NCBI GenBank assembly: GCA_965214705.1
Contig: OZ243972.1
Coordinates: forward strand, 320,001 to 384,000
Length of the DNA: 64,000 nt
DNA from: Alphaproteobacteria bacterium
GTDB taxonomy: Bacteria > Pseudomonadota > Alphaproteobacteria > UBA828
Reading direction: 5' to 3'
Below, in pieces: positions 40,465 to 62,340 of the stretch. Numbering within the stretch: position 1 is the first letter of the stretch; the number at the start of each line of letters is the position of its first letter. Made by a program: the position numbers and the translations under genes. The notes beneath the pieces are model-generated. The model had not been told where the DNA came from. It ran no database searches and worked only from the letters and a program-made list of their open reading frames with translations.

Positions 40465-40880
40465 GCACTAAATAACGCTATTGCTTAGTGCACGGGGGCT
40501 GACGCAGGGTTGCAGTTTCCTCCTTTATTAAAGTTATACTACAAAAGGTTATGTCTCAAGTCAAGGGTGATTGGAGCGGGGACGTAGGACACATTGGCTG
40601 ATCCTGTGTCTCTCGGCAGTTGCATTCAGGGGAGCCGGCAAGTGGAATTCGTCGTGGAGTAGTGATCTGGTGGCTGTTGCGGGATCGGATCATTCGGTCA
40701 GGACACAAGTATGGCACAGGTTCTTGTGTGCGAGGAATGTCATAGGAGTTTCGTGATCTATTCTACATGCAGGGGTAGCCCCGTGTCCCGGTTGCAGCAG
40801 GTTCCTACGGGCGGCTGGGCCGCGATGAGGGAGGATACCGGCGGACGCCGCCAGCGCGCGATCATGGCCACCGATGCCGA

Positions 40881-41234
40881 GTGGGAGCGGAGTGCGAGAC
40901 AATCCCGCCGCTACCGTGGACTAATTTCTCACCGCCGTTCACACTGTCGCGCCTGCTGAACGGCAAGGCGGGCGTATCGGCGAACATGGCCTTGGCGCTG
41001 GAGGATATCGGCTGGGGAACCGCCGAGCACTGGATGCGGATGCAGGCGAGCTACGAGCTTGCACAGGCGCGCCGCAACCGAGCCGTTGTCGAACGCCGCG
41101 CTGGCGCGCTTCAAGCTTGCCCGAGCGTCGTGCCAGCACTGCCGGACAGGGAGTTGTCCCGCATGCCGCCGGTCATCCGCTTCCTGACAACGGCAGGCTG
41201 CGACACGCCGCGCACCACGCGCGGCGCCGCCTGA
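40881..41234 (+). pseudogene. HigA-like (XRE HTH) antitoxin fragment
   Basis: TLSRLLNGKAGVSANMALALE...WMRMQASYELAQAR; N-terminus and toxin absent. Confidence 0.7.
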
Positions 41235-41426
41235 TGCGCCTGTCGTGGAACGAGGTCCGCCCGAAATCTTGGTGAGCAATTTCCGGACCTTCGAGCTTCA
41301 CGATCTTGACTCGCGCATGGACGCAGCGATGATCGCGTCCACCTTTTTCGCCGCTTAGACGACATGCGCATCGGCAAGGTGAGCATAGCTCGCCATCGTC
41401 CGGTGCTGCCTTAGGAGACAGCCAGA

Positions 41427-42209
41427 ATGCCGATTTACGAGAAAACCGTCAAGGAGCTGATGCACGAGTTCGCGGCCCAGGAATTGGGGCCAGGGAAGGT
41501 CTTCTCTCGTAAAGATGCGATTCGCTGGTTTGCCGAGCACTATCCGAGAATCAAGAGCAACACCGTCGGGTTGCATGTGGACGGCATGTCGGTGAACAAT
41601 TTTACTCAACGTCGGCACAGCCCCCAGATAAAGCCGGACAAGGACTGGGACCTGTTCTACAAGGAGGGCCCGCGCGAATTTCGCTTATGGGATCGCGAGA
41701 ACGATCCAGACCCCCGCTACAAGACCGATCTTGATGCAGATATTGGAGGAAGCGTTGCCAGGGCGGACGATATTGCCGGAGAGACCTCTGAGGAAGACGA
41801 CCCCGGTTCGCGCAAGTTCGCGTTCGAGCGGGACCTTCAGAACTATCTCGTGCAAAATCTCGGACTTTTGGAACCCGGCCTGAAGCTCTACGAAGACGAG
41901 GACGGAGAATTCACCGGCGTCGAGTTTCCCGCAGGCCAGCGCCGCATAGACATTCTCGCGGTCGGTGGCGACAGCGCCTACGTGGTGATCGAGACCAAGG
42001 TGTCCCGCGCCTACGACCGAGTCGTAGGTCAGGTTCTCCGGTATATGGGCTGGATTAAGGAAAACCTCGCTGGCGATGCGCCGGTCAGGGGCGTTATCGT
42101 CGCCAGCGAGATTTCGGAGGACCTCATTCTGGCAACTTCCTCCGTCGAGAACATTAGGCTCGTTGAGTACGAAATTTCTTTCTCCCTTAAATCCGTTTTC
42201 GGGCAATGA
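41427..42209 (+). CDS. NucS-like PD-(D/E)XK endonuclease domain protein with N-terminal HTH-like domain
   Basis: ERDLQNYL, RIDILA, VVIETK, VGQVLRYMGW. Confidence 0.85.
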   Translation: MPIYEKTVKELMHEFAAQELGPGKVFSRKDAIRWFAEHYPRIKSNTVGLHVDGMSVNNFTQRRHSPQIKPDKDWDLFYKEGPREFRLWDRENDPDPRYKTDLDADIGGSVARADDIAGETSEEDDPGSRKFAFERDLQNYLVQNLGLLEPGLKLYEDEDGEFTGVEFPAGQRRIDILAVGGDSAYVVIETKVSRAYDRVVGQVLRYMGWIKENLAGDAPVRGVIVASEISEDLILATSSVENIRLVEYEISFSLKSVFGQ

Positions 42210-42289
42210 CCCGGCATGCCGGTATGTGGTGAAGACGGTCATCAACTGGTTCGCCAGCGCACAAACGCACGCCGGAACTGACGTTCAGA

Positions 42290-42400: not shown

Positions 42401-42441
42401 TCCGCCCTTGACAGTCTTGGGCGCAGACAGACAGCTCCGTC

Positions 42442-42549
42442 ATTTCCGGGGCGTAACCGCCCCGGCCTCATTGAGGCCACCGTGAGCGTGTGAAGCAGAC
42501 CTTCCGCGCGGCGATTTCCGGGGCGTCACCGCCCCGGCCTCATTGAAGC
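42442..42549 (+). CRISPR. Orphan mini-array: two 36-bp type I-G (I-U)-like repeats and one 36-bp spacer
   Basis: ATTTCCGGGGCGT(A/C)ACCGCCCCGGCCTCATTGA(G/A)GC at 42442-42477 and 42514-42549; internal hairpin CCGGGGCG/CGCCCCGG; ATTGAAGC end. Confidence 0.8.
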
Positions 42550-43562
42550 GCGTTGCCGATCCGGGTACGAGCGCGTCGAGTCAGTGGGACGAACTGGCCT
42601 CATTGCCACCGATAGCCCGCGCGATGGCCGCGCCGACGCGTTCTGCCGCCGCCTCGATCTCCCAGTCCCCGACATGGGCGTATCGTAGCGTCATGCTCGG
42701 GCGCTTGTGGCCGAGCAGGCGGGAGACGACCGGCAGCGGGATGCCCCGCAGCACGGCATGGCTGGCAAACGTATGACGAAGGTCATGCAGGCGCACGTCC
42801 TCGATCCCCGCTTCCCCGCGCACCGAGTACCAGAGCCTCAGATCGCACGAGAACGGCCGCCCGGGGTTCGACGGCGAGGGGAAGACATACGCGCACCCGG
42901 ATCGTGGTTGCCGTTCCAGGATGGCGCGGGCCGGCGCGTTCAGGAAGACCCGTCTCGGCCCGGTCTTGGTGTCGCTCAAATTGAGCGTGTCCTCGTCCAC
43001 ATCCTGCCAGCGAAGGGTCCGGATCTCGCTCTTCCGGCAGCCGGTCAGTAAGAGAAGGCGGATGATGTCCGCCTGTCGAGCGTGTGAGGCCCGCGCGTCG
43101 GCGTAGCGGTCCAGCACGCGGTGAAGGCGGCGGATCTCCTCGCGCGACAGAAAACGAGTGAGTTTCGGGCGGGGGTTGCGCTTGATGCCACGCGCCGGGT
43201 TCGTCTGGAGATGGCCGTAACCGGCCGCATGGTTCAGGATCTGGCGAAGCAGGCTCAGCGCGCGATTGGCCCCGCCGGGCGCGGACCGGCTATACTCGTC
43301 GAACCAGCGGGTCACGCCGGCCCGGGTGATCCGGTCCAGGGGCAACGCCCCGAACGCTGGAAGCAAGTGTGCTCTCAGGATCCAGGCTGCGGTCTTTGCC
43401 GTGAAACAGATTCCGGCGAGGCACGCGTGGTGACGGTCCAACCCGCGAGTTGTGCGGAGTTGGCTGAGATCGCCGGCGTCGGCGCGGCAGTGACGAGCGG
43501 TGGACTTCCCCGATGTGGCCCGAAGCCGGTCCCGCGTAGCCGACAGGCGTGATGCAGGCTGC

Positions 43563-44813
43563 TCAGGCGACCTTGAGTTCCGCGTCCACGGGCTCGATGT
43601 AGCCGTAGCGGCGGAGCATGCGGATCCACCGAGGGGCGTTGCGCTTGACCATCAGCGCGTCGTAGTCGGCCGTGCGGTCGTAGTAGGGCCTGCCGGTCTT
43701 GAGGACGACATAGATGATGCGCAGCATCTTGTGTGCGCCGGCGACGATGGCGCGCTTGTAGCCGCGCCGGGCGGCGAGGGCGCGGTGGTGAGCCTCGAAC
43801 TGGCACCCCTTGGTTCGGGCCGCGCCGTGGGCACACTCGACGAGGCAGGCGCGCAGGGTCTTGGAACCCATGCGGGTGCGCGCGTTGCGGCGCTTGCCGC
43901 CACTTTCGTTGTTGCCGGGGCAGAGGCCGGCCCAGGCGGCGAAGTGCTCCTTGGAGGCGAACGCCTCGATATCGGGGCCGATCTCGATCAGGATCGTGGA
44001 CGCGGCGATGCGGTCGATGCCGGGGATGGTGGTCAGCAGGCGGAGCTGCTCCTCCCACGGGGTCATCTGCCCGTCGATCTTCTTGGTGTAGGACGCGATG
44101 CGCGCCTCGAGTGCGTCGTGCTCCTCCAGAAGATCGTTGAGCATGAAGCGATCGTTGTCGCCCAGGCTCAGGGAGAGCGCCTCGCCGAGCCCCTCCAGCT
44201 TGTTCGCGACGTGGCGGGTGAGGGAGGCGAGGATGACCTCCCGCTCCGTGCCTTGAGCCAGGCCGTCGAGGATCTTGCGGCCGTTGACGCCGAAGACATC
44301 GGAGATGATGCCGCCGATGCGCGCACCGGCACGGTCGATGATCTTCTGCACACGGTTGCGAACGGTGGAGCGCTGCCTGACCAGGACGCGGCGCTGGCGG
44401 CTCAGAGCGCGCAGCTCCCGGAACGGCTCAGGCGGAACATGGGACGGCGTGCAGAGCCCGAACTGGCACACACAGGCCAGCCACACGCTGTCGGCCACAT
44501 CGGTCTTGCGCCCCTTCAACTGCTTCACCTGGCGCGCGTGCACCAGGATCGCCTCGATCCCGGCCGCCTCCAGGGCCGCGAAGGGCGCCTGCCAGTAGAC
44601 CCCGGTCCCCTCCATGACCGCAGCCTCGACGCCGTGAGCGGTCAGCCATGCGACCATCTCCTCCAGACCGCTCGGCAGCGTGCTGAAGCAGCGCGTCTCC
44701 ACCACCGGCTCGCCCTCGCCCTCGCAGAGGCGAACCGTCGCGGTGATCTCCATCTTGTGCACGTCCAGACCCGCCGCGCGCGGCCGGACGACGTGCAAGC
44801 CTTCCGTCTTCAT
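43563..44813 (-). CDS. IS110-family recombinase/transposase
   Basis: DEDD motifs GLDVHK, MEGTG, KTDVAD; ESGGK catalytic-serine motif. Confidence 0.93.
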   Translation of the reverse strand: MKTEGLHVVRPRAAGLDVHKMEITATVRLCEGEGEPVVETRCFSTLPSGLEEMVAWLTAHGVEAAVMEGTGVYWQAPFAALEAAGIEAILVHARQVKQLKGRKTDVADSVWLACVCQFGLCTPSHVPPEPFRELRALSRQRRVLVRQRSTVRNRVQKIIDRAGARIGGIISDVFGVNGRKILDGLAQGTEREVILASLTRHVANKLEGLGEALSLSLGDNDRFMLNDLLEEHDALEARIASYTKKIDGQMTPWEEQLRLLTTIPGIDRIAASTILIEIGPDIEAFASKEHFAAWAGLCPGNNESGGKRRNARTRMGSKTLRACLVECAHGAARTKGCQFEAHHRALAARRGYKRAIVAGAHKMLRIIYVVLKTGRPYYDRTADYDALMVKRNAPRWIRMLRRYGYIEPVDAELKVA

Positions 44814-44878
44814 CGCCTTCCTCCTCATTTGCGCTCTCGCCACGGCGGCGTACGATCACGCCGTGGCATCGCCACGGT

Positions 44879-45055
44879 GGAGGCGGGGACAGCGGTCGGA
44901 AGGACACGCATCCGCCGAGCGGGTGCGGTTCGATTTGCCGCGCGTCCACGGCCAAAGGCCGGGTACAATACGGGGTGCGGAGCCGACCGCCGGAAGCAGT
45001 TTTGTCATCGGGAACTACGTCACCGATATAACGACGCTCACACGTCCCCGCCTCC
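44879..45055 (-). ncRNA. Candidate IS110 bridge RNA
   Basis: Non-coding end upstream of the recombinase, closed by a 12-bp stem (GGAGGCGGGGAC/GTCCCCGCCTCC); contains short matches to target and donor junction sequences. Confidence 0.55.
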
Positions 45056-45869
45056 GCCAACACCCATCCTGACACGGCAGAACCAGTGCAGGCGTGAGAA
45101 AAACGTCAGCCCAAGCGCCCCTGTTTCATGCCACGGGGTGGCTCAGAACCGCGGGGACCATGACTGTTTTGTGTCGATGGTTTGCATCTGTCGAGACGCG
45201 CCCGCGCCGGACCTGCGGCGAATTCCGCGAAGGTCGGGACAGTTCCTCTTCTCGGCCTGCCGGACCGCGCTTCGGTCTCGACGGCGAGGCACTTGGCGCG
45301 CGCCTCCTCGACCCTCATCAACGCGGCAGACCCGAGCGTGATCCTGCGCGCGCCGCCCTCGCCCTTCCGGCAATAGACATAGCTCCGGTGCCCCGACGAC
45401 CGAACCCGCACGCCGAGACCGGTCTGGCGCGTGTCCCAGACGGTGTGCACTACCTAAAGCGAACTGTTCGCGAACGAACCGTGACGCAGGGTTGCTCTTT
45501 CCTCCTGTATATGACTGACGCTACAGTGAGTTAGGATTCTTGTCAAGGGCGGATTGGGCGGAGATGGAGAACACATTGGCAAATCTTGTGTCTCTCAGGA
45601 GTTGCACGCGGGGAAGTGGGTTGTGGATATTGACGTAGAGCGCTGGTATGGCTTTTATCATGAATTGGGGGCTCTGCGAGGACACAATGGCGGCATATAC
45701 TATCGCTCACGAGGAATGCCATAGGATTTTGGTGACATATTCCTCGTCCTCACGAAGCCACGTGTCCCGGTTGCAGCAGGTCCCTACGGGCGGCTCGCCA
45801 CCATGAGGGAGGATGCCAGTGGGCGCCGCCAGCGCGCGGTCATGGCGACCGATGCGGAGTGGGAGCGGA

Positions 45870-46070
45870 GTGCGTCAGGCGAACTGGTGCGAGTGCAGTT
45901 GGTGAAAGTCTAACAGGAAGGAGAAGGTGAGCCACCACTTCCACCCCGAGTCATGGGCCGTTGTTCGCGAGGGCGAGGGTCAAGCGTTGACAGGGGCGCG
46001 TGTGGGCGGGGCTATTGAGCACCGAAAGAAAAACATCATCCGGGATGCCGAGGCTCTTTGCCGTGAAAAT
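45870..46070 (+). mobile_element. 5' fragment of a group II intron
   Basis: GTGCG start followed by domain-I-like GGTGAAAGTC...CCCCGAGTCATG...AAGCGTTGACAGGGG...TATTGAGC; no RT or domain V follows. Confidence 0.55.
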
Positions 46071-46579
46071 GCCCTCGGGTTCGGCACAAACACTCCCGCG
46101 CGACGCCGGTGTGCTGCTCCGGGGTCGCCGGGTATCCGCGACGAACGGTGCTCCTCTTATGAGGACTGCGACCGGTAGGCTACCCCGATGTGGTCCGAAG
46201 TCCGTCCGCGCGACGGGCACCGATTTTCATTCTACGGGGTGGTCCAGCACGGCGTCGACCATGATCGTTTCTTGACGGTGTAGGGGACGGTCAGCTTCCG
46301 TCCGCAGCGGCGGACTCGCCGTCCAGGCGGAGTGACGGGAGATTGTCGCGTGCGCGTGATGTGAGCCGAAGCCGTCGCGGCGCTTGAGCGACGAGCGACT
46401 CCCGTTCCCGACCGTGCACGCCTTGCTTCGTGATGTTCGAGGCGTTGCCTTCTCCGGAGCCATCTCGATAATGCCGGTCTTCAACGTTGCGCACGATCAC
46501 GGCACGGACGGCTTGCCGCCGCGATTGGTGTCGTGGCGGCCATGACGGCGATTTCTCCTGGAGCATCCGACGCTAAACC

Positions 46580-48070
46580 ATGCGGTGCGAACAGACCTGC
46601 CGGACGACCGACGAGGCGCCTGCCGAGGCGCCGCTGGTCGTCGATGTCGACGGCTCGCTGATCGGCGGCGATCTGCTGATCGAGGGGATCGCCCGGCTGC
46701 TCTCGGTCTCGCCGCTCAGCCTGTTCGCCCTGCCGTTCTGGCTGGCCGCCTCGATGGTGAGGGGACGCGCCGGGCTGAAACGCAGGATCGCGGAGGCGGT
46801 TCCGTTGCCGCCTGACACGCTGGCGTTGAACCCGGCCGTGCTGGAGGAGATCGCCGCGGCGCAGGCGGCGGGACGCGCGGTCTGGCTTGCCTCTGCCTCC
46901 GACGAACGCGCGGTGGCCCCGCTCGCCGAGACGGTGGGAGCGGCAGGCTGTCTTGCTTCGGACGGACGCACCAACCTGGCGGGCGAGGCCAAGGCGGCCG
47001 CTCTGGTCGCGCGCTTCGGCGAGGGCGGGTTCGATTACATCGGCAACGAGCGGCGCGATCTGGCGGTCTGGAAGCGGGGGCGACGGGCCATCGGGGTCGG
47101 TCTTTCGGCGGGCCTAGCGCGCAAGGTTCGGGCGCTGGACGGCGAGGCCCGGTTCCTGCCCGGGCTCGGCGGCGGTCCGCTCGACCGGTTCCGGGCGTTG
47201 CGGCCGCACCAGTGGATCAAGAACGTGCTGGTGTTCGTTCCCCTCGCGGCGGCGCACGAGACCGGCGCGGGGCCGTATCTGGTGGCCGCCGGGATGTTCG
47301 CGGCGCTGTCGGCCGTAGCATCGGGCACCTATCTGCTGAACGACCTGCTCGATCTCCCGCACGACCGCCGGCACCCGGTCAAGCGCCACCGCCCGATGGC
47401 TGCGGGGAGGGTGCCGCTGCTGCCGATGATCGGCATCGGCGCCGCGCTGGCGTCGGGCGGCCTCGCCCTGGCGTTCTGGCTGTCGACCGCGGCGGGGCTC
47501 TGGGTCCTTCTGTATCTGGCCGCGACCTGCGCCTACTCGCTGTCGCTGAAGCGCAAGACCTTCATCGACGTGGTGACCCTCGCCATGCTCTATGCGGTCC
47601 GTGTGCTGGCCGGCGCGGCGGCGGTGTCGGTCGCGCTGTCGCCCTGGCTGCTCGCCTTTTTCCTGTTCCTTTTCCTCGCCCTGGCCATCGTCAAGCGTCA
47701 GGGCGAGCTGCGCGCGCTGCTCGGGTCCGACCAGTCCGCGCCCAGCGGCCGGGCCTATCTTGCCGAGGATTTCCCCGTGATGGCGGCGCTGGGCGCGGCG
47801 AGCGGCGTGGCCTCGGTGGTGATTCTGACCCTCTACATCCAGAGCCCGGAGACGGGGGAGCGCTATGCCCGCCCGGAGCTCCTGTGGCTGATCTGCCCGC
47901 TGCTTCTCTACTGGCTGGGGCGCATGGCGCTCCTCGCCTGTCGCGGGGGGGGGGGGGGGGACTCAAAACGGGTACCGGGTAACGACGACCCGCTGATCTT
48001 CGCGCTGCGTGACCGGACGAGCTGGCTGACCGGCCTCGGCGTCCTGGCCGCGTTCGCGGCAGCCCTGTGA
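46580..48070 (+). CDS. UbiA-family polyprenyl-phosphate phosphoribosyltransferase with N-terminal HAD-like domain
   Basis: VDVDGSL (HAD-like); LRPHQWIKN, NDLLDLPHDRRHPVKRHRP, DDPLIF; G16 tract at 47945-47960. Confidence 0.88.
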   Translation: MRCEQTCRTTDEAPAEAPLVVDVDGSLIGGDLLIEGIARLLSVSPLSLFALPFWLAASMVRGRAGLKRRIAEAVPLPPDTLALNPAVLEEIAAAQAAGRAVWLASASDERAVAPLAETVGAAGCLASDGRTNLAGEAKAAALVARFGEGGFDYIGNERRDLAVWKRGRRAIGVGLSAGLARKVRALDGEARFLPGLGGGPLDRFRALRPHQWIKNVLVFVPLAAAHETGAGPYLVAAGMFAALSAVASGTYLLNDLLDLPHDRRHPVKRHRPMAAGRVPLLPMIGIGAALASGGLALAFWLSTAAGLWVLLYLAATCAYSLSLKRKTFIDVVTLAMLYAVRVLAGAAAVSVALSPWLLAFFLFLFLALAIVKRQGELRALLGSDQSAPSGRAYLAEDFPVMAALGAASGVASVVILTLYIQSPETGERYARPELLWLICPLLLYWLGRMALLACRGGGGGDSKRVPGNDDPLIFALRDRTSWLTGLGVLAAFAAAL

Positions 48071-48077
48071 CGCGCGC

Positions 48078-48491
48078 ATGGTGCCGCCCGCGTCTCTCGG
48101 CCTGCGCTACGCCGCCTTCGCCGCGGCCGCGACGGCGGTCAACGCCGCAACCCAGTATATCGGCAGCACCCTGTACACGGGCCGCTACGAGCTGTACGCG
48201 GCCATGGCGGCGGGAACGCTTGCCGGGCTGATCGCCAAGTACGTCCTCGACCGCCGCTGGATCTTCCATGACCGGCCCGCCTCGCCGCGCGGCCACGCGG
48301 TCAAGTTCACCCTCTATTCGCTGACGGGCGTCCTGACGACCGTCATCTTCTGGGGCACCGAGCTTGCGTTCGCAGCGCTGGGCGATGCGCCCTGGCTGCG
48401 CTACGCCGGCGCCGTCCTCGGGCTCGCCGTCGGCTACACCGCGAAGTACCGCCTCGACCGGCGCTTCGTCTTCCGGGAGCGGGCCGCATGA
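48078..48491 (+). CDS. GtrA-family flippase-like protein
   Basis: 137 aa, four TM segments, KYVLDRRWIF / KYRLDRRFVF. Confidence 0.88.
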   Translation: MVPPASLGLRYAAFAAAATAVNAATQYIGSTLYTGRYELYAAMAAGTLAGLIAKYVLDRRWIFHDRPASPRGHAVKFTLYSLTGVLTTVIFWGTELAFAALGDAPWLRYAGAVLGLAVGYTAKYRLDRRFVFRERAA

Positions 48492-49825
48492 CGCTCTCCG
48501 GCTGGGGCCGGCATCCGGTGCTCGATTGCCGGCTGGAGCGCCTGCGCCGGCGCGAGGACCTGCCCACTCTGCTCCGGCGCGGCGGGACGCTGATCGCGCG
48601 CGGCAACGGGCGCTCCTACGGCGACGCCGCGCTCAACCCGGATCTGACGCTCTCGATGCTGGCGATGGACCGGATGTGGGCGTTCGACGCCGGGACCGGC
48701 CTGCTCGACTGCGAGGCCGGGGTGCTGCTCGCGGACATCCTGGAGACCTTCGTGCCGCGCGGCTGGTTCCCGCCGGTGGTGCCGGGGACCGGGCTCGTCA
48801 CCGTCGGCGGCATGATCGCGGCGGACGTGCACGGCAAGAACCATCACCGCGACGGGAGCTTCGGCGCGCACGTGGAAGCGCTGACGCTCGCGACCGCGGA
48901 CGGCGCGATACGGGCGTGCAGCCGCACGGAGAACGCCGATCTCTTCCGCGCCACCCTCGGCGGGATGGGGCTGACCGGGGTGATCCTGTCGGCACGCTTC
49001 CGCCTGATGCCGGTCGAGACCGCCTTCGTGTTGGCGGAGACCTGGGCCGCGCGCGACCTCGACGAGACGATGGCCCTGTTCGAGGAGTCCCGGGACTGGC
49101 CCTACAGCGTGGCCTGGATCGACAGCCTGGCGCGGGGCACGAGGCTGGGCCGCGCGGTGATGACGCGCGGCGCGTTCATGGAGCGCGGCGCGCTGCCGCC
49201 GCGGCTCGCGTCCGATCCCTTGCGCTTGGCGCATGCGGGCAATCTCCGGGTTCCCGCCGATGCGCCATCCGCCCTGCTCAACCGGGTCTCGATCGGTCTC
49301 TTCAACGAACTCCATTACCGGCGCGGGCGGGGACGAGCACGGGCCGGGGCGCGCCCGGTCCGTTTCGACCGCTTCTTCTTTCCCCTCGACCGGATCGAGG
49401 CGTGGAACCGCCTCTACGGGCGGCGTGGGTTCGTCCAGTACCAGTGCGTGCTGCCCAGGGGCGAGAGCGCGGCCGGGATCGCCGCGCTTCTGGAGCGCGT
49501 CGCCGCGTCCGGGCGGGGCTCGTTCCTGGCGGTGCTCAAGCTGTTCGGCCCCGCAGGCGAGGGGCCGATGTCGTTCCCCATGGAGGGCTACACGCTGGCG
49601 CTCGACTTTCCGATGCGCCGCGGCACGCCGGCGCTGCTCGATGCGCTCGACGAAATCGCCCACCGGCACGGCGGGCGCGTCTATTTCGCCAAGGACGCCC
49701 GCTGCGCGCCGGAACGGGTGCGCGAGGGCTATCCCCGGCTCGGCGCCTTCGAGGCGGTCCGCGCCGAGGCGGCCGGGGCGCCGCCCAGGTTCGCCTCCGC
49801 GCTCTCACGGCGGCTCGCTCTGTGA
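48488..49825 (+). CDS. DprE1-like FAD-dependent oxidoreductase
   Basis: LSGWG, ARGNGRSYGDAA, PGT..VTVGG, DVHGKNHH, WNRLYG, FVQYQ, YFAKD. Confidence 0.9.
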   Translation: MTLSGWGRHPVLDCRLERLRRREDLPTLLRRGGTLIARGNGRSYGDAALNPDLTLSMLAMDRMWAFDAGTGLLDCEAGVLLADILETFVPRGWFPPVVPGTGLVTVGGMIAADVHGKNHHRDGSFGAHVEALTLATADGAIRACSRTENADLFRATLGGMGLTGVILSARFRLMPVETAFVLAETWAARDLDETMALFEESRDWPYSVAWIDSLARGTRLGRAVMTRGAFMERGALPPRLASDPLRLAHAGNLRVPADAPSALLNRVSIGLFNELHYRRGRGRARAGARPVRFDRFFFPLDRIEAWNRLYGRRGFVQYQCVLPRGESAAGIAALLERVAASGRGSFLAVLKLFGPAGEGPMSFPMEGYTLALDFPMRRGTPALLDALDEIAHRHGGRVYFAKDARCAPERVREGYPRLGAFEAVRAEAAGAPPRFASALSRRLAL

Positions 49826-49851
49826 CCTCCCCTTCGAGAGAGAGGAACGAT

Positions 49852-54581: not shown

Positions 54582-54696
54582 TGTGCCCTCGCCTGATCGC
54601 GGCAACCGGCAGCGGCCAGCGGACACCCAGCGAGGACCACGCTTGGAGGAGCGGCTTCGATCTCGTCGAAACGGCGAGCGGCGCGAAAACCCTGCC

Positions 54697-55443
54697 ATGA
54701 ACAGCGCGGTCGAAACAGCGCTGGTGATCGGCGCCACATCGGACATTGGCCGCGCCATCGCTCACACGATGGCGGACGGGGGCTGCGCGTTGCAGCTCGC
54801 GGCGCGCGACCCGGCGCGGCTGGAGCGGGAAGCGCGTGACATCCGGGTGCGCAAGGGGGCAGCCGTAGCCGCGCACCACTGCGACGTGCTCGATGAAGAC
54901 GGCGGCGTCTCGCTGCTCGATGAGCTCGATCCCCTGCCCGACGTGGCGGTGTGCGTCGTCGGGTTGCTCGGCGATCAGGCGGAAAGTCAGCGGGACGCCA
55001 ACGCCGCCGGGCCAGTGATGCGGACGAACTATATCGGTCCCGCGCTGCTGATGGGGGCGCTCGCCGAGCGCTTCGAGCAGCGTGGCGGCGGCATCCTGGT
55101 CGGTGTCAGCTCGGTGGCCGGCGACCGCGGGCGTGCATCGAACTACGTCTATGGCTCGGCGAAGGCGGGGTTCACCGCGTTCCTCTCCGGTCTGCGCGGC
55201 CGACTGGTTGCCTCCGGCGTCCACGTGGTGACGGTCAAGCCGGGCTTCGTGCGCACACGCATGACCGACGGGATGGACCTGCCGGCCCGGCTGACCGCTA
55301 ACCCCGAGGAGGTCGCCACGGTGGTCGTCGAAGCGATCCGCCGACGCCGCGACGTCGTTTACGTACGCCACGCCTGGCGCCCGATCATGTTCGTTATACG
55401 CGCTATTCCTGAGCGCCTGTTCAAGCGGATGAAGCGCCTGTGA
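54697..55443 (+). CDS. DprE2-like short-chain dehydrogenase
   Basis: IGATSDIG, SSVAGDRGRASNYVYGSAKAG, KPGFVRTRMT. Confidence 0.88.
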   Translation: MNSAVETALVIGATSDIGRAIAHTMADGGCALQLAARDPARLEREARDIRVRKGAAVAAHHCDVLDEDGGVSLLDELDPLPDVAVCVVGLLGDQAESQRDANAAGPVMRTNYIGPALLMGALAERFEQRGGGILVGVSSVAGDRGRASNYVYGSAKAGFTAFLSGLRGRLVASGVHVVTVKPGFVRTRMTDGMDLPARLTANPEEVATVVVEAIRRRRDVVYVRHAWRPIMFVIRAIPERLFKRMKRL

Positions 55444-55670: not shown

Positions 55671-56831
55671 TCAACAGTCTACGTTGACCCCACTGCAATC
55701 CAATGCGGACGCAATTGCCGCACCGATGCGTTCCGCCGCCGCCTCGGTCTCACGGTCGCCGACGTGAGCGTAGCGCAGCGTCATGCTTGGGCGCTTGTGG
55801 CCGAGCAGGCGCGAGACGACGGGCAAGGGGATGCCTTGCATCACGGCGTGGCTGGCGAACGTGTGTCGCAAGTCGTGAAGGCGCACGTCTTCGATTCCGA
55901 TTTCCCTGCGCACTAGGTACCAGAGCGGCAGGTGGGACGACAGCGGCCGCGTCGGATCGAACGGCGAGGGAAAGACATACGCGCTTCCGGTTCGCAGCTG
56001 CCGCTCCAGGATGGCGCGCGCGGGCGCATTCAGGACGACCCGCCGCGGCCCGGACTTGGCATCCGCGAGATTGAGCGCGTCCCCGTCGATGTCCTGCCGA
56101 CGCATGGTCACGATCTCGTTCTTGCGGCAGCCGGTCAGCAGGAGAAGGCGGATGATGTCCGCCTGCCGTGCGCGCGACGGCCGCGCGCCGGCATGGTGGT
56201 CCAGCGCGCGGTGAAGGCGCTGGATCTCCTCGCGCGAGAGGAAGCGGGTTAGCTTCGGGCGCGGATTCCGCTTCACGCAGCTGGCCGGGTTCGTGTCGAG
56301 ATGCCCGCACGCGACGGCCTGGTTCAGTATCCGGCGGAGCAGGCCCAACGCCTGGTTGGCCCCGCCCGGCGCGGTCCGGCTGTACTCGCCGAACCAGCGG
56401 TGCACATTCGCGGGGGCGATCCGGTCCAGCGGCGACGGGCCGAAGGCCGGAAGCAAGTGCCTCCGCAAGACCCAGTTCGCTCTCTTCCGCGCCGAAGGCT
56501 TGAGATTGTCGAGCCGCGCCTTCACCGGACCTGCGACGAAATCCCCGAACGTCGGCACCGCTCCCCGTTCCGGCCGCCCGGACCGTGCTGCGGTCTCCAG
56601 GGTGAGGCACTTGGCGCGCGCTTCCTCGACGCCCATCAGGGCCGCAGGCGCGAGGGTCATCCTGCGCGCGCCGCCCTCGCCCTTCCGGCAATAGACGTAG
56701 CTGCGGTGTCCCGAGGGCCGGACCCGCACGCCGAGGCCGGCATGGCGGGTGTCCCAGACCGTGTACTCGCGCGCCGCCGGCGTCAGCCAAGCCACGTTGG
56801 CGTCGGTCAGACGCTTCCTCTTCCCGGCCAT
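55671..56831 (-). CDS. intB of element B: intact tyrosine recombinase with arm-binding-type N-terminus
   Basis: TVWD...GLGVRV; LTGCRKNE, K, HDLRH, LGH, LRY. Confidence 0.92.
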   Translation of the reverse strand: MAGKRKRLTDANVAWLTPAAREYTVWDTRHAGLGVRVRPSGHRSYVYCRKGEGGARRMTLAPAALMGVEEARAKCLTLETAARSGRPERGAVPTFGDFVAGPVKARLDNLKPSARKRANWVLRRHLLPAFGPSPLDRIAPANVHRWFGEYSRTAPGGANQALGLLRRILNQAVACGHLDTNPASCVKRNPRPKLTRFLSREEIQRLHRALDHHAGARPSRARQADIIRLLLLTGCRKNEIVTMRRQDIDGDALNLADAKSGPRRVVLNAPARAILERQLRTGSAYVFPSPFDPTRPLSSHLPLWYLVRREIGIEDVRLHDLRHTFASHAVMQGIPLPVVSRLLGHKRPSMTLRYAHVGDRETEAAAERIGAAIASALDCSGVNVDC

Positions 56832-57051
56832 GCGTCAGCCCTCAAGGACAGCGCCGACGGCCTCGGCCGCCTCGCGCACCATGGCGTCGGACAAATGCAA
56901 GTATTTCAGCGTCGTTGCCGGATCGCGGTGCCCGAGAAGACAGCCGATGGTCAGCACCGTCGTAAGCGGTATCGAGGCCCCATACTTCCAACGCATCTGA
57001 TTTCGCGGCTGACTCTTGGCCTTGGCAAGGAGCCTTGGAGGAGGCATCGCG

Positions 57052-57654
57052 ATGAAGGATTTGGATTTTCTGCGTGGCCACGAGTTCGGCGGTCACTCGG
57101 TCGAGGCGCGAGCGCCTGAAGAGGCCGCCCCATCTGCCGCAGCCCCATCTACGGCAACTGTTCCGGCTGATCACACTCGGCGGTCATGGTCCGCCGAGGA
57201 GAAGGCACGGATCGTCGCGGAGAGCGACAGGCCGGGAGTTGTGCAGAAGGAGGTCGCGGCTCGCCACGGCATCAGCGCACAAACTCTTCGTCAGTGGCGC
57301 AGTCGGTCAGCGGCTTCCGGGAAGCGGCGTGGCCGGCCTTGGCCGGCTGATGTGAAGGCGCGGATTGTTGCGGAGAGCGAGCGCCCGGATGCATCGATAT
57401 CGGCAGTTGCCCGCCGTCACGGCATCAGCGAGAAGACGCTGCGCACCTGGCGTCGCCAGGCGGCGAGTGACGCTGGTGGCGATCGGCAGGGAGCCGGGTC
57501 TTCGCCCCCCTATATTCCGGTTGTAGTTGACGGGTCTGCGTCCGAGCGGACGGTCGCGATTGAGGCGCTGGGCGTCGTCGTTCGCCTTCCGGTGGAGAGC
57601 GCGGTCGATCGGATCGTGGCTGTGGCCTCGGGCCTGGGTCGTGCGTCGTCATGA
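57052..57654 (+). CDS. tnpA: IS66 TnpA with a duplicated HTH domain
   Basis: Two KARIVAES...VA.RHGIS..TLR.WR units. Confidence 0.85.
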   Translation: MKDLDFLRGHEFGGHSVEARAPEEAAPSAAAPSTATVPADHTRRSWSAEEKARIVAESDRPGVVQKEVAARHGISAQTLRQWRSRSAASGKRRGRPWPADVKARIVAESERPDASISAVARRHGISEKTLRTWRRQAASDAGGDRQGAGSSPPYIPVVVDGSASERTVAIEALGVVVRLPVESAVDRIVAVASGLGRASS

Positions 57655-58001
57655 TCGCGGTGCCCTCGCTTCGCATCGTGTTGGCGACGCGTCCGGTTGA
57701 TTTTCGTCGCGGCCACGACGCGCTTGCGGCGACGGCGGCGAGGGAGCTGGACCTCGATATCTATTCCGGGGTGATCGTGATCTTCCGCTCGCGCCGCGGG
57801 GACAGGCTCAAGCTTCTCACCTGGGACGGGACCGGTCTGGTGATGACCTACAAGCGTCTGGAGCAAGGCCGCTTCGCCTGGCCCCGGATCGAGGACGGTG
57901 TGATTCGCCTTACGAAGGGCCAGTTCGAGGCTCTCTTCGAGGGCCTCGACTGGCGCCGGGTGAAGGCCCGCCCGGTTCGCCGCCCGCTGGCGGCGGAGTG
58001 A
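57651..58001 (+). CDS. tnpB: IS66 accessory protein TnpB
   Basis: PVDFRRG, DRLKLLTWDGTG, KRLEQGRF. Confidence 0.92.
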   Translation: MIAVPSLRIVLATRPVDFRRGHDALAATAARELDLDIYSGVIVIFRSRRGDRLKLLTWDGTGLVMTYKRLEQGRFAWPRIEDGVIRLTKGQFEALFEGLDWRRVKARPVRRPLAAE

Positions 58002-58094
58002 GGCGAGACGCAGGCGGGTCCGCAGATTTTTGTCGAGGTCCCGCCTGCACTTTTCCCTGGTCACGCATTGGCGAATCGGATTAAGGGATCGGCC

Positions 58095-59810
58095 ATGCCG
58101 AAGGTCACGCCCTCACCCCTCAGCAGCGCCGGTTCGCCGTCGCCTGCGGTGGTTTCGGCGGCGCTGGCGACCCTGCAGGCGGAGCTTGCCGAGGAGCGCG
58201 CGGCGCGCCGTGCGACCGAAGCAGCCCTATGCGAAGCGGAGCAGGCACGCGGCGCGGCGGAGGCGGCGAGGCAGACGGCGGAAGCGCGGGCGGCACGGCT
58301 GGAGGCCGAGAACGCGCACAGCGCGGAGCAGATCAGCCGGCTTGAGCATCTCAACAAGGAGCTCAGGAAGGCGCTGTTCGGTCCGCGCTCCGAGAAGCTC
58401 AACGAGGACGAGCGCCAGCTTACGTTCGAGGAGTTTTGGGCGGCGATCGCTGAAGCCGGCGGTCGGCCCGAGGCAGATGACCAGGAGCAGGACGAGGGGG
58501 CTGGCGGCAAGCGCCGGCGGCGCTCTTCCCGGGGGTCGCGCAGCGGGGTGCGCTTCGGGCCCCAGGTCGACCGGCGCGAGGAGGTGATCGAGCCGGACAC
58601 GATCATGTGCCCCTGCGGCTGCGGCGAGATGACGAAGATCGGCGAGGACCGCAGCGAGCGGCTGGACTATGAGCCGGCGAAGTTCACCGTCATCGAGACC
58701 GTGCGCCCCCGCTACGCCTGCAACAAGTGCAAGGGCGGCGGGGTGGTGCAGGCGTCGGCGCCCGCCTCTCTGGTGGAGGGCGGCCTTCCCACCGAGGCTC
58801 TTCTGGCGCAGGTGCTGATCGCGAAGTACGGCGATCATTGCCCGCTCTACCGTCAGTCGCAGATTTACGAGCGCTCGGGGATCGAGGTTCACCGTGCGAC
58901 GCTGGCGACGTGGGTGGGGCAGGCGTCGTTTCACCTGCGCCCCGTGGTCGCTTGCCTGAAGGATGAGCTGAAGAAGTCGGATCACCTGGGTCTGGACGAG
59001 ACCACGATCCGCGTTCTCGACCCGGGCCGGGGCAAGACGAAGACGGGCTACATGTGGACCCTTGTGCGCGACGAGCGCCACTGGAGCGGCGCCGACCCGC
59101 CGGGCGTTGTCTATCGCTATGAGCCCGGTCGCGGCGGCAAGTATGGCGCCAGGCTCTTGAAGGGCTTTTCGGGGACGGTGCAGCTCGACGCCTACTCGGG
59201 CCACAACATCCTGGCGCGGCCGGACCGGCCCGGCGGCCCCGTGACGCGGGCTCTGTGCTGGGCGCACGTCAGGCGCAAGCTGAAAGAGGTGTACGACTCG
59301 AGCGCCTCGCCGATCGCGCTGGCTGGCCTGAAGCGGATCGCGACGCTCTATGCGATCGAGGAGAAGATCCGGGGCGAGCCGCCGGCGACGCGTCAGGCGA
59401 TCCGCTGGGAGGAGTCGGCGCCGATCGTGAACGCCTTCGGTGTCTGGCTCGACGAACAGCGCTCGCGGGTCTCACCGCGCTCGCGTCTCGGCGAGAAGCT
59501 CACCTATATCGCCAACCAGTGGGACGGGCTGCTGGAGTTCCTGCACGACGGCCGCGTCGAGATCGACTCGAACCTGGTGGAAAACCGAATCCGCCCGCTG
59601 AAGCTCACCGCCAAGAATGCGCTCTTCGCCGGCAACGACGAGGGTGCGCAAGCCTGGGCCCGCATCGCATCGCTGATCGAGACCTGCAAGATGAACGGCG
59701 TCGAGCCTTACGCCTGGATGCGGAGCACGCTCGAGAAGATCGCCAAGGGTCACCCGCAGTCCAAAATCCAGGAACTGCTGCCGTGGAACTTCGAGCCCGA
59801 GACAAATTGA
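58095..59810 (+). CDS. tnpC: IS66 transposase TnpC
   Basis: FGPRSEK, PLYRQ, DETT, DAYSG, CWAHVRRK, IDSNLVENRIR, ELLPWN. Confidence 0.93.
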   Translation: MPKVTPSPLSSAGSPSPAVVSAALATLQAELAEERAARRATEAALCEAEQARGAAEAARQTAEARAARLEAENAHSAEQISRLEHLNKELRKALFGPRSEKLNEDERQLTFEEFWAAIAEAGGRPEADDQEQDEGAGGKRRRRSSRGSRSGVRFGPQVDRREEVIEPDTIMCPCGCGEMTKIGEDRSERLDYEPAKFTVIETVRPRYACNKCKGGGVVQASAPASLVEGGLPTEALLAQVLIAKYGDHCPLYRQSQIYERSGIEVHRATLATWVGQASFHLRPVVACLKDELKKSDHLGLDETTIRVLDPGRGKTKTGYMWTLVRDERHWSGADPPGVVYRYEPGRGGKYGARLLKGFSGTVQLDAYSGHNILARPDRPGGPVTRALCWAHVRRKLKEVYDSSASPIALAGLKRIATLYAIEEKIRGEPPATRQAIRWEESAPIVNAFGVWLDEQRSRVSPRSRLGEKLTYIANQWDGLLEFLHDGRVEIDSNLVENRIRPLKLTAKNALFAGNDEGAQAWARIASLIETCKMNGVEPYAWMRSTLEKIAKGHPQSKIQELLPWNFEPETN

Positions 59811-61093
59811 CTCGCGCGCTCACGGCGCTCCTCAACAAGTCCCCCTCGTAGTCAACCCAGATTCCGGCATGGGGTCTGCGTAACGCTTACGCACCGTCTC
59901 GCCCCGCACCAGGGCCGTGCTGGCGTACGTATGTCGAAGGTCGTGAAGGCGGACGTCGCACAGGTCCGCTTCCGCCCTCACGCGATGCCAAGACTTGCCG
60001 ACACCGACCGTGTGCAGGAAGCCGTCGGACCGCGGCGAGGGGAAGACCCAGACGGACGTGCGGGGCAGGCCGTCGAGGATTGCGCGCGCGGCGGACGAGA
60101 GCCAGACCGTGCGCGGACCGGTCTTGGAATCGGGCAGGAACAGCTTGCCCTCGCGGTAGAAAGACCACTTCAGGGTGACGATCTCGCTCTTGCGGCATCC
60201 GGTGAGCAGCAGCAGGCGAATGATCGCCACGGCCAGCGGCCGGTCGGCCTCGTGGCGTGCCAGCACGGCGCCCAGCCGGCGCATCTCCGCGGCCGACAGG
60301 AAGCGCTCCCGCCCCTGGCGGCGGTACCGCCTGATGCCCGCGCACGGGTTGGTCCCCTCGGTCCGGTAGCCGTAGACCTCGGCTTGGCGCATGATGACCG
60401 AGAGGACTGGGGCCGAGCGGTCCGCCGCCACCGGGGTCACGTGGAGGGAGGCGAACCAGCGCTGGACGTCGTGCGCGGTGATGTCGGCGATCGGGCGCCC
60501 TTCGAAGCAGGGCAAAATCTGGTTGCGGTAGTAGTAGCGGTTGACCTTGAGCGTCGATGGTTTCCAGTTTCGGGCATAGCGGTGGAAGACTTCATCGGCG
60601 ACCGTCTCGAACGGGATGTCCGGCGCCGCTGTGGCATCGCCGCCGTTGCCCTTGCGGACCGAGGCCACCAGGGTCCTGGCCCGGTCGCGGGCCTCGTCGG
60701 CGCCGATGGCCCCGGCCTGGCCGACGATCTTCCAGACCCGCCGGCCCTGGTGCTGGGTATGGACGAAGTAGCGTTTGGCGCCCGAGGGAAGGACCCTGAC
60801 GCCGAAGCCCTTGAGATCGCGGTCGCGCACGTCGTAGGCGGACTTGCGGGGCTTGAGCGCGTCGACGCGGTGTTCGTTGAGGCGAACCGTCGCCATGAAA
60901 CTCCTCCTGCGTTCTGTTGCAGCCGGGGAAGAACGCGGACCGATTCCGCGTCTTCCGGGCTTGACAGGAGGAAAAAAGCAACGCTATGTCAGTGCATTAG
61001 AACCGAAGGTGCGCCAGACGGTGTACTCGCGGGCCATCGGCGCCAGCCGGGCCACGTTGGCGTCGGTCAGACGCCGCCTCTTCACGGCCATGC

Positions 61094-62218
61094 CTAGCCC
61101 TCCAGGACGGCGCCGACGGTATCGACGGCCTCGAGCACTGTGAGGTCGGACATGTGTGTGTATTTCAGCGTCGTTGCCGGATCGCGGTGTCCGAGAAGAC
61201 GGCCGATCGTGAGCACCGTCTCACCCTGCGCGAGTGCCATGCTGGCGTACGAATGCCGCAGATCGTGAAGGCGGACGTCGCGCAGATCCGCTTCCGTTCT
61301 CACGCGACACCAGACCGCGCCGACTGCCCTTGCGCTCAGGAAGCCACCTGTTCTTGGCGAGGGGAAAACCCAGGCGGCTTCGCGGGGCAAGCCGTCCAGG
61401 ATTGCGCGCGCGGCGGACGACAGCCAGACCGTGCGCGGCCCGGACTTGCTGTCGGGCAGGAACAGCTTCCCCTCGCGGTAGAAGCGCCATTTCAGGGAGA
61501 TGACCTCGCCCTTGCGGCAGCCGGTCAGCAGCAGCAGGCGTATGATCGCCATGGCCTGAGGGCAGGCGGCTTCATGGCGTGCCAGCACATCGCCCAGACG
61601 GCGGAGTTCGGCGGTCGACAGGAAGCGCTCCCGCCCCTGGCGGCGGTATCGCCTGATGCCCGCGCACGGGTTGCTTCCCTCGGGCCGGTAGCCGTAGATC
61701 TCGGCCTGGCGCATGATGACGGACAGGACGGGAGCCGAGCGGTCCGCCGCCACCGGGGTCTCGTGAAGGGATGCGAACCAGTGCCGGACATCGCGGGCGG
61801 CGATGCCGGCGATCGGGCGTCCCTTGAACCAGGGCAGAATCTGGTTCCGGTAGTAGCCCTGGTTGACCTTGAGCGTCGACGGCTTCCAGTTCCGAGCGTA
61901 GCGCCGGAACACTTCGTCGCCGACCGTCTCGAACGGAGTGTCCGGCGGTGCTGCGGCTTCGTCGTCGTTGCCCTTGCGGATGGAGGCCACCAGGGTTCTG
62001 GCCCGTTCGCGGGCCTCGTCAACGCTGACGGAGCCGGCGCGGCCGACGATCTTCCAGACCCGCCGACCGTCGTGCTGAGCATGTACGAAGTAGCGCTTGG
62101 CGCCCGAGGGCAGGACCCTGACGCCGAAGCCCTTGAGATCGCGGTCACGGACATCGTAGGCGGCCTTGCGGGGCTTGAGCGCGTTGACACGGCGTTGGTT
62201 GAGGCGAACTCTTGCCAC
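61094..62218 (-). CDS. intA of element A: intact tyrosine recombinase with arm-binding-type N-terminus
   Basis: GTG after GGAGG; GFGVRV, LTGCRKGE, DSKSG, HDLRH, LGH, LKY. Confidence 0.92.
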   Translation of the reverse strand: MARVRLNQRRVNALKPRKAAYDVRDRDLKGFGVRVLPSGAKRYFVHAQHDGRRVWKIVGRAGSVSVDEARERARTLVASIRKGNDDEAAAPPDTPFETVGDEVFRRYARNWKPSTLKVNQGYYRNQILPWFKGRPIAGIAARDVRHWFASLHETPVAADRSAPVLSVIMRQAEIYGYRPEGSNPCAGIRRYRRQGRERFLSTAELRRLGDVLARHEAACPQAMAIIRLLLLTGCRKGEVISLKWRFYREGKLFLPDSKSGPRTVWLSSAARAILDGLPREAAWVFPSPRTGGFLSARAVGAVWCRVRTEADLRDVRLHDLRHSYASMALAQGETVLTIGRLLGHRDPATTLKYTHMSDLTVLEAVDTVGAVLEG

Positions 62219-62340
62219 AGATATTCCTCCTGCATTCACTGTTGCGGCCGGGGCGAAAACACGGACCGGTTCCGTGTTCTTCGGCCGAATCAGGAGGAGA
62301 AATGCAACGCTATGTCAGTGTGTTAGAACCGCAGGTGCGC

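Follow-up and report, generated by a model that had tools for sequence, protein, structure and literature searches.

A multi-copy, apparently unnamed family of integrative elements with paired tyrosine integrases in an alphaproteobacterial genome

The 64,000-nt stretch of alphaproteobacterial DNA considered here (the window; contig OZ243972.1, positions 320,001 to 384,000, assembly GCA_965214705.1) contains two insertions, A and B, of which B is nested inside A. The two share their ends and a pair of integrase genes, intA and intB, and each is bounded by a perfect 10-mer of the form NNNNNGGTGT. A repeat of this kind raises the question of how such elements move. The sequence-only reading of this locus took the 10-mer to be a target duplication made by an undescribed family of cargo transposons; a sequence held in common by element and target, across which strands are exchanged, would leave a similar trace. 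On the evidence set out below, the family is real, multi-copy and apparently unnamed, and its general kind has already been described. Its members are probably integrative mobilizable elements (IMEs, or mobilizable transposons) with paired integrases, for which the flanking 10-mer would serve as the crossover core. A and B are decayed, relaxase-less nested members of this family.

Elements A and B and the family to which they belong

The ends, integrase genes and interruptions of the two elements are as follows (window coordinates, strand, feature).

39812..40464, minus: 3′ half of the gene hosting A, DDE_Tnp_1 transposase (Pfam), with eight genome copies; continues at 62341-63548
40393..40464, unstranded: six tandem 12-bp units (CGCGGGTGGTGT; repeat family D5), the last 10 bp of which (40455-40464) are the left 10-mer of A, CGGGTGGTGT; a single unit in four uninterrupted copies of the gene
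40465..40824, plus: left end of A, non-coding, with an inverted-repeat arm at approximately 40499-40525; candidate oriT and arm-site region
40825..40896, plus: start of the NikA-like ribbon-helix-helix gene of A, cut after ..EWER by 5 nt of an intron 5′ end (40892-40896), then unrelated DNA (alignment of 15 left ends; the intact homologue matches PF21983 below the gathering score)
42581..43402, minus: C-terminal piece of A intB, residues ~116-377 (tblastn, Pfam)
43403..45174, minus: IS110-family insertion within A intB, transposase at 43563-44843 (PF01548/PF02371); repeat families D3 and D4 show a 1772-bp difference in spacing
45175..45446, minus: middle piece of A intB, residues ~23-113 (tblastn), ending in the left 10-mer of B, CAGACGGTGT (45437-45446)
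45447..45869, plus: left end of B, comprising a non-coding region, an inverted-repeat arm (approximately 45482-45508) and a NikA-like gene start (45803-45869)
45870..46134, plus: group II intron 5′ fragment (starting GTGCG) in the NikA-like gene of B (Rfam RF02005)
55671..56831, minus: B intB, intact, 386 aa (Pfam); also a paralogous, uninterrupted version of the target of B (D11)
56838..56960, minus: C-terminal remnant of B intA, residues ~341-381 (tblastn)
56961..59831, plus: IS66-family insertion splitting B intA, with open reading frames (ORFs) at 57016-57654, 57651-58001 and 58068-59810 (Pfam); boundaries approximate
59832..60896, minus: N-terminal ~335 residues of B intA, without His351 and Tyr360 (Pfam, tblastn, alignment)
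60897..61014, minus: right end of B, with inverted-repeat arm and terminus TTAGAACCGAAGGTGCGC
61015..61091, minus: start codon and first ~26 codons of A intB, including the right 10-mer of B (61015-61024)
61094..62239, minus: A intA, intact, 381 aa, with R242, H325, R328, H351 and Y360 present (Pfam, alignment)
62240..62340, minus: right end of A, with inverted-repeat arm at 62291-62318 and terminus TTAGAACCGCAGGTGCGC
62341..63548, minus: right 10-mer of A (62341-62350) and 5′ half of the host gene, with DruA and DDE_Tnp_1_assoc domains (Pfam)

By direct reading, A extends from 40465 (GCACTA..) to 62340 (..TTAGAACCGCAGGTGCGC), with CGGGTGGTGT on both flanks (40455-40464 and 62341-62350), and B from 45447 (GCACTA..) to 61014 (..TTAGAACCGAAGGTGCGC), with CAGACGGTGT on both flanks (45437-45446 and 61015-61024). 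The right termini have the common form TTAGAACCG(C/A)AGGTGCGC, and the two elements are 78 % identical across 100 nt at their right ends (repeat family D10) and 72.8 % identical across 401 nt at their left ends. A subterminal inverted repeat of ~27 bp is found in both, starting 34–35 nt in from the left terminus and 22 nt in from the right, which puts figures on the unequal end distances already remarked upon. Both integrases are of the tyrosine type, have Arm-DNA-bind_3, SAM-like and Phage_integrase domains (Pfam), and are read inward from the right end; in A, the stop of intA lies 2 nt ahead of the intB start. Direct reading thus confirms the termini, inverted repeat, left end and inward intA–intB arrangement that the sequence-only reading had described as shared by A and B.

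The coupled pair is present in both elements and intact in neither. The gene that hosts A encodes a transposase with DruA, DDE_Tnp_1_assoc and DDE_Tnp_1 domains (Pfam), and the target of B is formed by the N-terminal codons of A intB. This latter gene is consequently found in three pieces, cut by B after codon ~26 and again by the IS110-family element at approximately 43403-45174. In B, intA is cut at around residue 335–342 by the IS66-family element, with its last ~40 codons at 56838-56960 (Pfam, tblastn), and because of this insertion B IntA is without His351 and Tyr360 (residue numbers from the integrase alignment). As A intB and B intA are both broken, and both elements are without a relaxase, their movement would be possible only in trans.

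The conserved left end of ~430 bp noted earlier is likewise present, and the point at which homology between A and B ceases is the entry of a group II intron in a NikA-like gene, after ..EWER. An alignment of 15 left ends places the intron at the same codon in B and in two other copies in the host genome (C1:~2015460 and C3:~1780410). What is left of it is a 5′ fragment in B (Rfam RF02005, 45905-46134, 87.8 bits) and 5 nt in A (40892-40896). As a separate observation, the NikA-like gene looks like an intron homing site.

A search of genomes for these ends and integrases, proposed by the sequence-only reading as a check, bore out the observation: other copies carry both the ends and the 10-mer. 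In the host genome (7.92 Mb in three contigs, C1, C2 and C3), right ends of the form TTAG(C/A)ACCG(N)AGGTGCG(C/T) occur 37 times, and are directly followed by NNNNNGGTGT in 35 cases. Approximately 31 left ends were recognized (the listing has 32 rows, one being an internal-repeat artefact), and these are of three types: 15 with GCAC, 13 with GGTCCT or GAGTCC, and three with GACAAA. All have a subterminal repeat matching that of their own right ends. The left terminus GCACTA therefore holds for A and B and is not family-wide, with GGTCCT, GAGTCC, GACAAA and GAACCT found among other members. A candidate partner 94 kb from the right end at C3:512979 was rejected, having turned out to be a fortuitous match where a multi-copy insertion sequence (IS) ends. 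Hosts of family members are often themselves mobile DNA, including a 36-copy repeat, a 95-copy repeat, the intA or intB of other elements and, for element d (lower-case letters denote individual copies), a TrwB coupling-protein gene; within the 36-copy repeat, three elements, each with a different left-end type, occupy the site TTGTCGGTGT.

Both integrase genes are full-length at 24 of the 37 right ends, and the stop of intA and the start of intB are only a few nt apart in 23 of these 24 pairs, C1-1856380 being the exception. No variation is seen at R242, E245, H325 or R328 across 29 IntA and 24 IntB sequences; H351 is present in 28/29 IntA and 24/24 IntB, and Y360 in 29/29 and 23/24, respectively. 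The two integrases of a single element are 35–39 % identical to one another. PF00589 matches all four integrase genes of the window, and both integrases of A, B, h and g match PF13356 together with PF14659/PF22022. Integrase-pair classes ~80 % and ~60 % identical to A IntA have the same ends. A third class, of ~15 tandem integrase pairs ~40 % identical to IntA (e.g. C2:603358-605723, C1:1980804-1983097 and C3:225594-227884), has different ends that are rich in GCGTA(G/C) motifs, and looks like a sister family.

The nature of the family is most apparent from element h (C2:554447-569963), a seemingly intact copy with perfect 10-mers. It comprises, in order, ~365 bp of non-coding DNA, two to three NikA-like ribbon-helix-helix ORFs, a TrwC relaxase, cargo that includes IS1595, intB and intA. 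The relaxase is 1598 aa in length and joins TrwC to an AAA_30 helicase (PF08751, 4.5e-75). Amongst the left ends, a NikA-like ORF lies 366–407 bp from the terminus at 17 of 31, and at 445–595 bp in three more, whilst a long TrwC homologue is found inside ten elements. Element g, at 4.1 kb, is relaxase-less and has the same ends as the rest of the family. Seven strong TrwB matches adjoin other relaxases, none of them one of the ten counted inside paired elements, and PF03135 (VirB4) has no match in the host genome, other ATPase families lying outside this search.

An IME is defined, in the available part of PMC5704250, as an element with its own integration/excision enzyme, and its own relaxase and/or oriT without a mating-pair apparatus, which excises as a circle and is transferred by a helper. 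The intA–intB pair, found at every right end examined, supplies the enzyme, and given the NikA-like genes and TrwC relaxase of intact relatives, the family looks like one of IMEs. The term 'cargo transposon' is accordingly too narrow, as canonical members carry these mobilization genes. The canonical layout is a left end, ~365–400 bp of non-coding DNA that probably holds oriT and integrase arm sites, NikA-like genes, the TrwC relaxase-helicase, cargo, and intB–intA reading inward from the right end. Transfer between cells would presumably combine the relaxase of the element with a helper conjugation system.

The flanking 10-mer and the mode of movement

For a comparison of the 10-mers, ends were paired by position and orientation and not by sequence, which gave 23 pairs. 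Across the variable positions 1–5, partners differ at two positions or fewer in all 23 pairs, as against 75 of 506 non-partner comparisons (14.8 %); together with the recurrence of the ends at 37 right and approximately 31 left termini, this agreement lies well outside what chance would give. Eleven pairs are perfect, with the remaining 12 differing at one or two positions. The 17 mismatches fall at position 4 (seven), 5 (five), 1 (two), 3 (two) and 6 (one), such that positions 4–5 hold 12 of the 16 within the variable half (binomial p = 0.005), the invariance of positions 6–10 being partly by construction, since GGTGT was required in refining the left ends. A target logo, also suggested by the sequence-only reading, has the conserved form NNNN-H-GGTGT with uninformative flanks. 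Beyond the host genome, two pairs mismatch at position 5 (ATGTT/ATGTA and ATCAA/ATCAG). A scan with the 18-nt right terminus, using one genome per species, returned 27 matches with the subterminal repeat, 18 of which have GGTGT at positions 6–10. Matches lacking the repeat are mostly due to chance, as expected for 17 fixed bases, and also include variant subfamilies in metagenome-assembled genomes (MAGs) of Alpha- and Gammaproteobacteria.

Sites without an insertion add a second line of evidence. Uninterrupted paralogous targets carry a single 10-mer (19 copies for element h, 45 for j, 36 for u and bb, 32 for x, 95 for y and six for B), and for element c an uninterrupted orthologous site is present in two related genomes, with flanks 94–99 % identical. 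Where an imperfect pair has an empty site for comparison, it is the right-hand 10-mer that agrees with the target in four elements (c, d, o and s) and the left-hand one in two (i and cc). The version that does not match the target recurs in related elements, ACGCT being found in both d and l, and CGCGA in both o and f. Flank swapping by homologous recombination was also considered as the cause of imperfect pairs, for which only g and i look reciprocal; as the left and right flanks of c, d, i, o, s and cc are contiguous in the empty sites, swapping does not explain those pairs.

Three other accounts of these ends have to be weighed. The first is that the copies are ordinary genomic islands, each specific to one fixed attachment site, which accumulated by separate acquisition and segmental duplication without hopping in the genome. 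The differing cargo of the copies, and the fact that their integrases are only 60–80 % identical, would suit this account, as would the reuse of targets, with TTGTCGGTGT of the 36-copy repeat occupied three times and the GTTAAGGTGT site used repeatedly in the host genome (a pattern search of the same genome returned no empty GTTAAGGTGT target). Set against it are six integrase modules, ≥97 % identical over ≥1.5 kb, that reside at six loci with different outer flanks, and with cores (CGTCC, CGCAT, CGCGC, CGTCA, CGCAC and CGTCT) that differ at positions 3–5. Moreover, the only conserved feature of the targets is H-GGTGT, with uninformative flanks, and they include coding genes, IS copies and the integrase gene of another element. 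We consider separate fixed-site islands to be an unlikely source of these copies.

The second account is the one originally put forward, whereby a tyrosine-recombinase transposon makes a 10-bp staggered cut in its target, repair of which yields a true 10-bp target-site duplication. Much of what prompted it stands: the 10-mers around A, B and nine other pairs are perfect, those of A and B lie within coding genes, empty paralogous or orthologous sites have exactly one copy, and the variable half differs amongst insertions. It is the interpretation as a target duplication that fares poorly. Twelve of the 23 pairs are imperfect, and 12 of all 17 mismatches sit at positions 4–5, a clustering that random decay would not produce. 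In a duplication both flanks are copies of the target, yet in the six imperfect pairs with a comparator one flank differs from it centrally, this being the left copy in c, d, o and s and the right copy in i and cc, and the non-target versions (ACGCT, CGCGA) are those that recur in related elements. Tyrosine recombinases, in addition, exchange strands conservatively and without DNA synthesis. Staggered cutting and repair is, as a result, very improbable here.

Integration of DNA by TrwC can occur at sequences resembling oriT, and GGTGT is part of the F-type nick site. The last account builds on this, in that a TrwC-type relaxase would set the ends by nicking at GGTGT|G and joining a rolled-out single strand into GGTGT targets, in the HUH or rolling-circle manner; whilst a TrwC relaxase is indeed close to the left end in canonical members and every left junction reads GGTGT|G, a process of this kind would make no demands on the five variable bases. 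In all 23 pairs, however, at least three of the five agree (against 14.8 % of non-partner comparisons). The account also predicts that the target version is always on the left, when c, d, o and s have it on the other side. The conserved right terminus, moreover, lies directly upstream of intA at 37/37 right ends, and the relaxase-less copies A, B and g have the same ends. All of this makes it the least credible of the three.

The central mismatches, the presence of the target version on either side, and the near-identical modules with different cores fit instead with conservative tyrosine recombination by the integrase pair. The 10-mer would then most likely be a crossover core common to element and target rather than a fill-in duplication. 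An excised circle, its ends joined as ..GGTGCGC-NNNNNGGTGT-G.., would recombine with a target in which GGTGT follows approximately five bases that match those of the element. Type-1 ends joined as a circle would read GTGCGC-N8-GTGCAC, i.e. near-inverted arms around 8 bp, and from the shape of this junction we place a putative overlap of ~8 bp, and hence the cleavage points, at positions 1–8, the last two bases of the 10-mer being the GT of the right-hand core site. Identity would be needed beside the two cleavage points, with mismatches at the centre (positions 4–5) tolerated. The resulting heteroduplex could segregate to either daughter, such that left and right copies may differ and the core of an element may slowly be rewritten. 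IntA and IntB would probably act on this asymmetric core as a heteromer, as XerC and XerD do.

A number of observations weigh against the conclusion that these are IMEs with a crossover core, or against parts of it. Positions 1 and 3 each mismatch twice, and the comparators for d, i, s and cc are paralogues of 86–94 % identity. Both 10-mers of element c end in T, whilst both orthologous empty sites have C at position 10; this could reflect a single-nucleotide polymorphism that created the site, or donor sequence outside the proposed overlap. The ATCAA/ATCAG pair is also mismatched at position 10; a simple 8-bp overlap predicts neither this nor the case of element c. In addition, nine of the 27 repeat-bearing right ends have a GGTGT that is altered or shifted by 1–2 nt. 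The NikA-like ORFs match PF21983 at E values of 5e-5 to 2e-4, below the Pfam gathering score. No partner could be assigned to 14 of the right ends, and certain ends are wrongly oriented (e.g. C3:1420737 with C3:2067572, and C1:4124596 with C1:4139695), from which it appears that rearrangements between copies are common and that some positional pairs are possibly composites. Conservative cut-and-paste alone, furthermore, leaves the high copy number unexplained. Finally, no circle junction was seen in the contigs of the four public sequencing runs compared with element h, from 21 such runs found, all available as contigs only.

In these comparisons, a 137→15665 joint in three runs (20-nt sides, 10 shared letters) was rejected as evidence of excision, because the genome contains 19 near-identical empty copies of the target.

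Should the crossover core be as proposed, one may speculate further, and rather doubtfully, that this is a naturally retargetable integrase system. Here, the proteins would read approximately five fixed bases (GGTGT), whilst the remainder of the address would be the five-base overlap of the element itself, checked by base pairing and with its centre rewritten at each hop. If true, this would explain how one near-identical module reached six cores in one genome, and changing five bases in the joined ends would redirect integration to any matching NNNNHGGTGT site. The tandem expansions of 12 and 25 bp, ending in GGTGT, that some copies of the A target gene carry would then be scars left where these enzymes had acted between adjacent GGTGT sites.

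Relation to described systems and distribution

A full-text literature search, covering articles and not supplementary tables, returned no name or description of the family. The claim that it is undescribed stands in this respect, and also in that its gene content is not that of RIT, Tn554, SE, GInt or BIM elements; the general kind, by comparison, is known from Prevotella intermedia (excerpts of PMC4755523 and PMC5704250). The mobilizable transposons MTnPi1-3 of that organism have a relaxase, two tandem tyrosine integrases and similar 11-bp att sequences at both borders, and, according to the same excerpts, are present as several active copies per genome with low integration specificity, one copy lying within an integrase gene (PMC4755523, PMC5704250). 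By description rather than by sequence, they are thus the closest kind to the present family, with which they share a relaxase, tandem integrases, a short att core, several copies and low specificity; unlike it, they have a Bacteroidota host and a primase-family gene (parts of PMC4755523, PMC5704250). The available part of the 2017 review states that no canonical IME with a MobF relaxase was known at that time, nor any in Proteobacteria (PMC5704250). The family described here would therefore add a proteobacterial, MobF-type, paired-integrase branch to the mobilizable transposons.

A likeness also exists to SE, GInt and Tn554 elements, in that these have two tyrosine recombinases, imperfect terminal repeats and a conserved accessory gene at the end far from intA, and a short spacer can moreover be taken along from the old site to the new, with no need for matching flanks (excerpts of PMC10214605). 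Gene content, however, differs: SE consists of intA-tfp-intB with srap, GInt of ginABCD, and Tn554 of tnpABC with one large recombinase, whereas two integrases of ~375–395 aa are found here (PMC10214605 and, for Tn554, PMC3414803, each in part). SE elements have, in the same excerpts, a 6-bp spacer whose placement is strictly biased to one side, where here the target version is found on either side, and reports of SE are confined to Gammaproteobacteria, with one to two copies per replicon (PMC10214605). With only a few nt between intA and intB in 23 of 24 pairs, a tfp gene could not be accommodated here, which sets SE and GInt apart by their descriptions, and the gene at the far end is NikA-like here versus srap in SE. 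Tn554 is set apart, again by description, since both integrases here are of ~375–395 aa with an arm-binding domain. BIM elements pair one tyrosine recombinase with a conserved non-recombinase protein, and are from Betaproteobacteria (excerpt of PMC3414803); here, both genes are recombinases. RIT and Tn554 subgroups are mentioned in the available part of PMC8138268, and paired arm-binding integrases are not mentioned in that part. RIT elements have three adjacent recombinases (ritA-ritB-ritC), and in the present family there are two such genes, with cargo beyond intB.

In terms of the proteins themselves, the P4-type (Arm-DNA-bind_3 / DUF4102) island integrases have the same domain order of arm-binding, SAM-like and catalytic regions. 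Such integrases act singly, on long fixed cores that are usually the ends of tRNA genes. XerC and XerD at dif are two paralogous recombinases that each take one half-site of an asymmetric core, and a similar division of labour may apply here. The Xer proteins have no arm-binding domain, use a single, fixed site on the chromosome and are encoded outside the element that is moved. CTnDOT, NBU1, Tn916 and Tn4555 exchange strands conservatively with tolerance of overlap heterology, form a heteroduplex and use a short fixed target motif beside the overlap, each with a single integrase. They resemble the present family in that the overlap or coupling sequence need not be identical and flanks may differ; they differ from it in having one integrase rather than a pair. 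Additionally, since mismatches are central in our pairs, homology beside the cleavage points still seems to be required, unlike in Tn916, CTnDOT, NBU1 and Tn4555. The Tn916 heteroduplex model and the Tn4555 overlap heterology are covered by excerpts of PMC10214605 and PMC5704250.

With regard to distribution, of 18 further genomes of the genus, 13 have IntA (E ≤ 1e-80), each with as many as 15 matches; of 12 genomes sampled from other genera in the order and class, none has it. The family is common, and relatives of IntA number in the thousands in public assemblies: a protein search with IntA placed 7322 proteins at E ≤ 0.001 amongst 8000 scored candidates. The best 120 relatives are 77–84 % identical (the protein of the window aside), and those with names are called only 'site-specific integrase' or 'tyrosine-type recombinase/integrase'. 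Of 24 related loci retrieved, mostly from alphaproteobacterial MAGs, at least 16 have IntB directly after IntA, and at eight of 11 relatives' loci the right terminus is followed by NNNNNGGTGT. In three of five other genomes, partner left ends were not found within 60 kb. Within PLSDB, plasmids carry only relatives of <60 % identity, in 11 records. The Shewanella oneidensis MR-1 megaplasmid (NC_004349.1, 32496-34993) has an overlapping pair annotated as site-specific integrase and tyrosine recombinase, the first of which shares ~39 % identity with IntA. Integrases coupled in pairs may extend far beyond the family itself.

The copies of the family form a natural data set from which to judge the degree of overlap identity required by a pair of tyrosine recombinases. 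If target choice does consist of five fixed bases and five that can be matched, IntA and IntB would merit a trial as an integration tool. In annotation, nested 'integrase' clutter becomes resolvable into discrete elements with exact ends.

Cargo and target genes

Cargo is sizeable, differs amongst copies of the family, and includes three of the five Cas1 loci of the host genome (in elements n, p and x, with Cas1 or array loci at C3:1657419-1660014, C1:406199-407047 and C3:494463-495314). The cargo features of A and B are the following.

40881..41234, plus: HigA-like antitoxin fragment, A cargo (NCBIfam TIGR02607, 1.5e-11, below cut-off)
41427..42209, plus: nuclease-like gene with DUF7669 and NucS_C, A cargo (Pfam)
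42441..42549, plus: two CRISPR-like repeats with one spacer (Rfam RF01330, CRISPR-DR16, at 42513-42549)
46580..55443, plus: B cargo, comprising a HAD and UbiA prenyltransferase, GtrA, a FAD_binding_4 oxidase, a short-chain dehydrogenase (Pfam) and two long ORFs (1335 and 737 aa) without a family match

Twelve further ORFs of A and B have no Pfam family. The mini-array of A, with its two CRISPR-like repeats, has a relative of at least nine repeats with an adjacent Cas1 inside element n. The cargo of B presumably represents a polyprenyl-phospho-sugar (arabinose-type) cell-surface pathway. It also contains a G16 and a C16 tract, which form a perfect 22-nt inverted pair (47942-47963 and 53410-53431, 5.4 kb apart; I12), and which could be either phase-variation tracts or assembly artefacts.

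The target gene of A is present in eight copies, four of which have a single GGTGTCGCGGGTGGTGT unit. Five extra 12-bp units lie beside the element in the copy occupied by A (window 40393-40464), an element-free copy has nine extra, and another has two extra units as well as two tandem 25-bp inserts that each end in GGTGT (the other expansion loci being C3:1309656-1309763 and C3:~1727485-1727573). These tandem expansions could be recombinase scars or the result of simple slippage. The host gene of A is itself a fusion, in which a Druantia DruA domain is joined to DDE_Tnp_1_assoc and DDE_Tnp_1.

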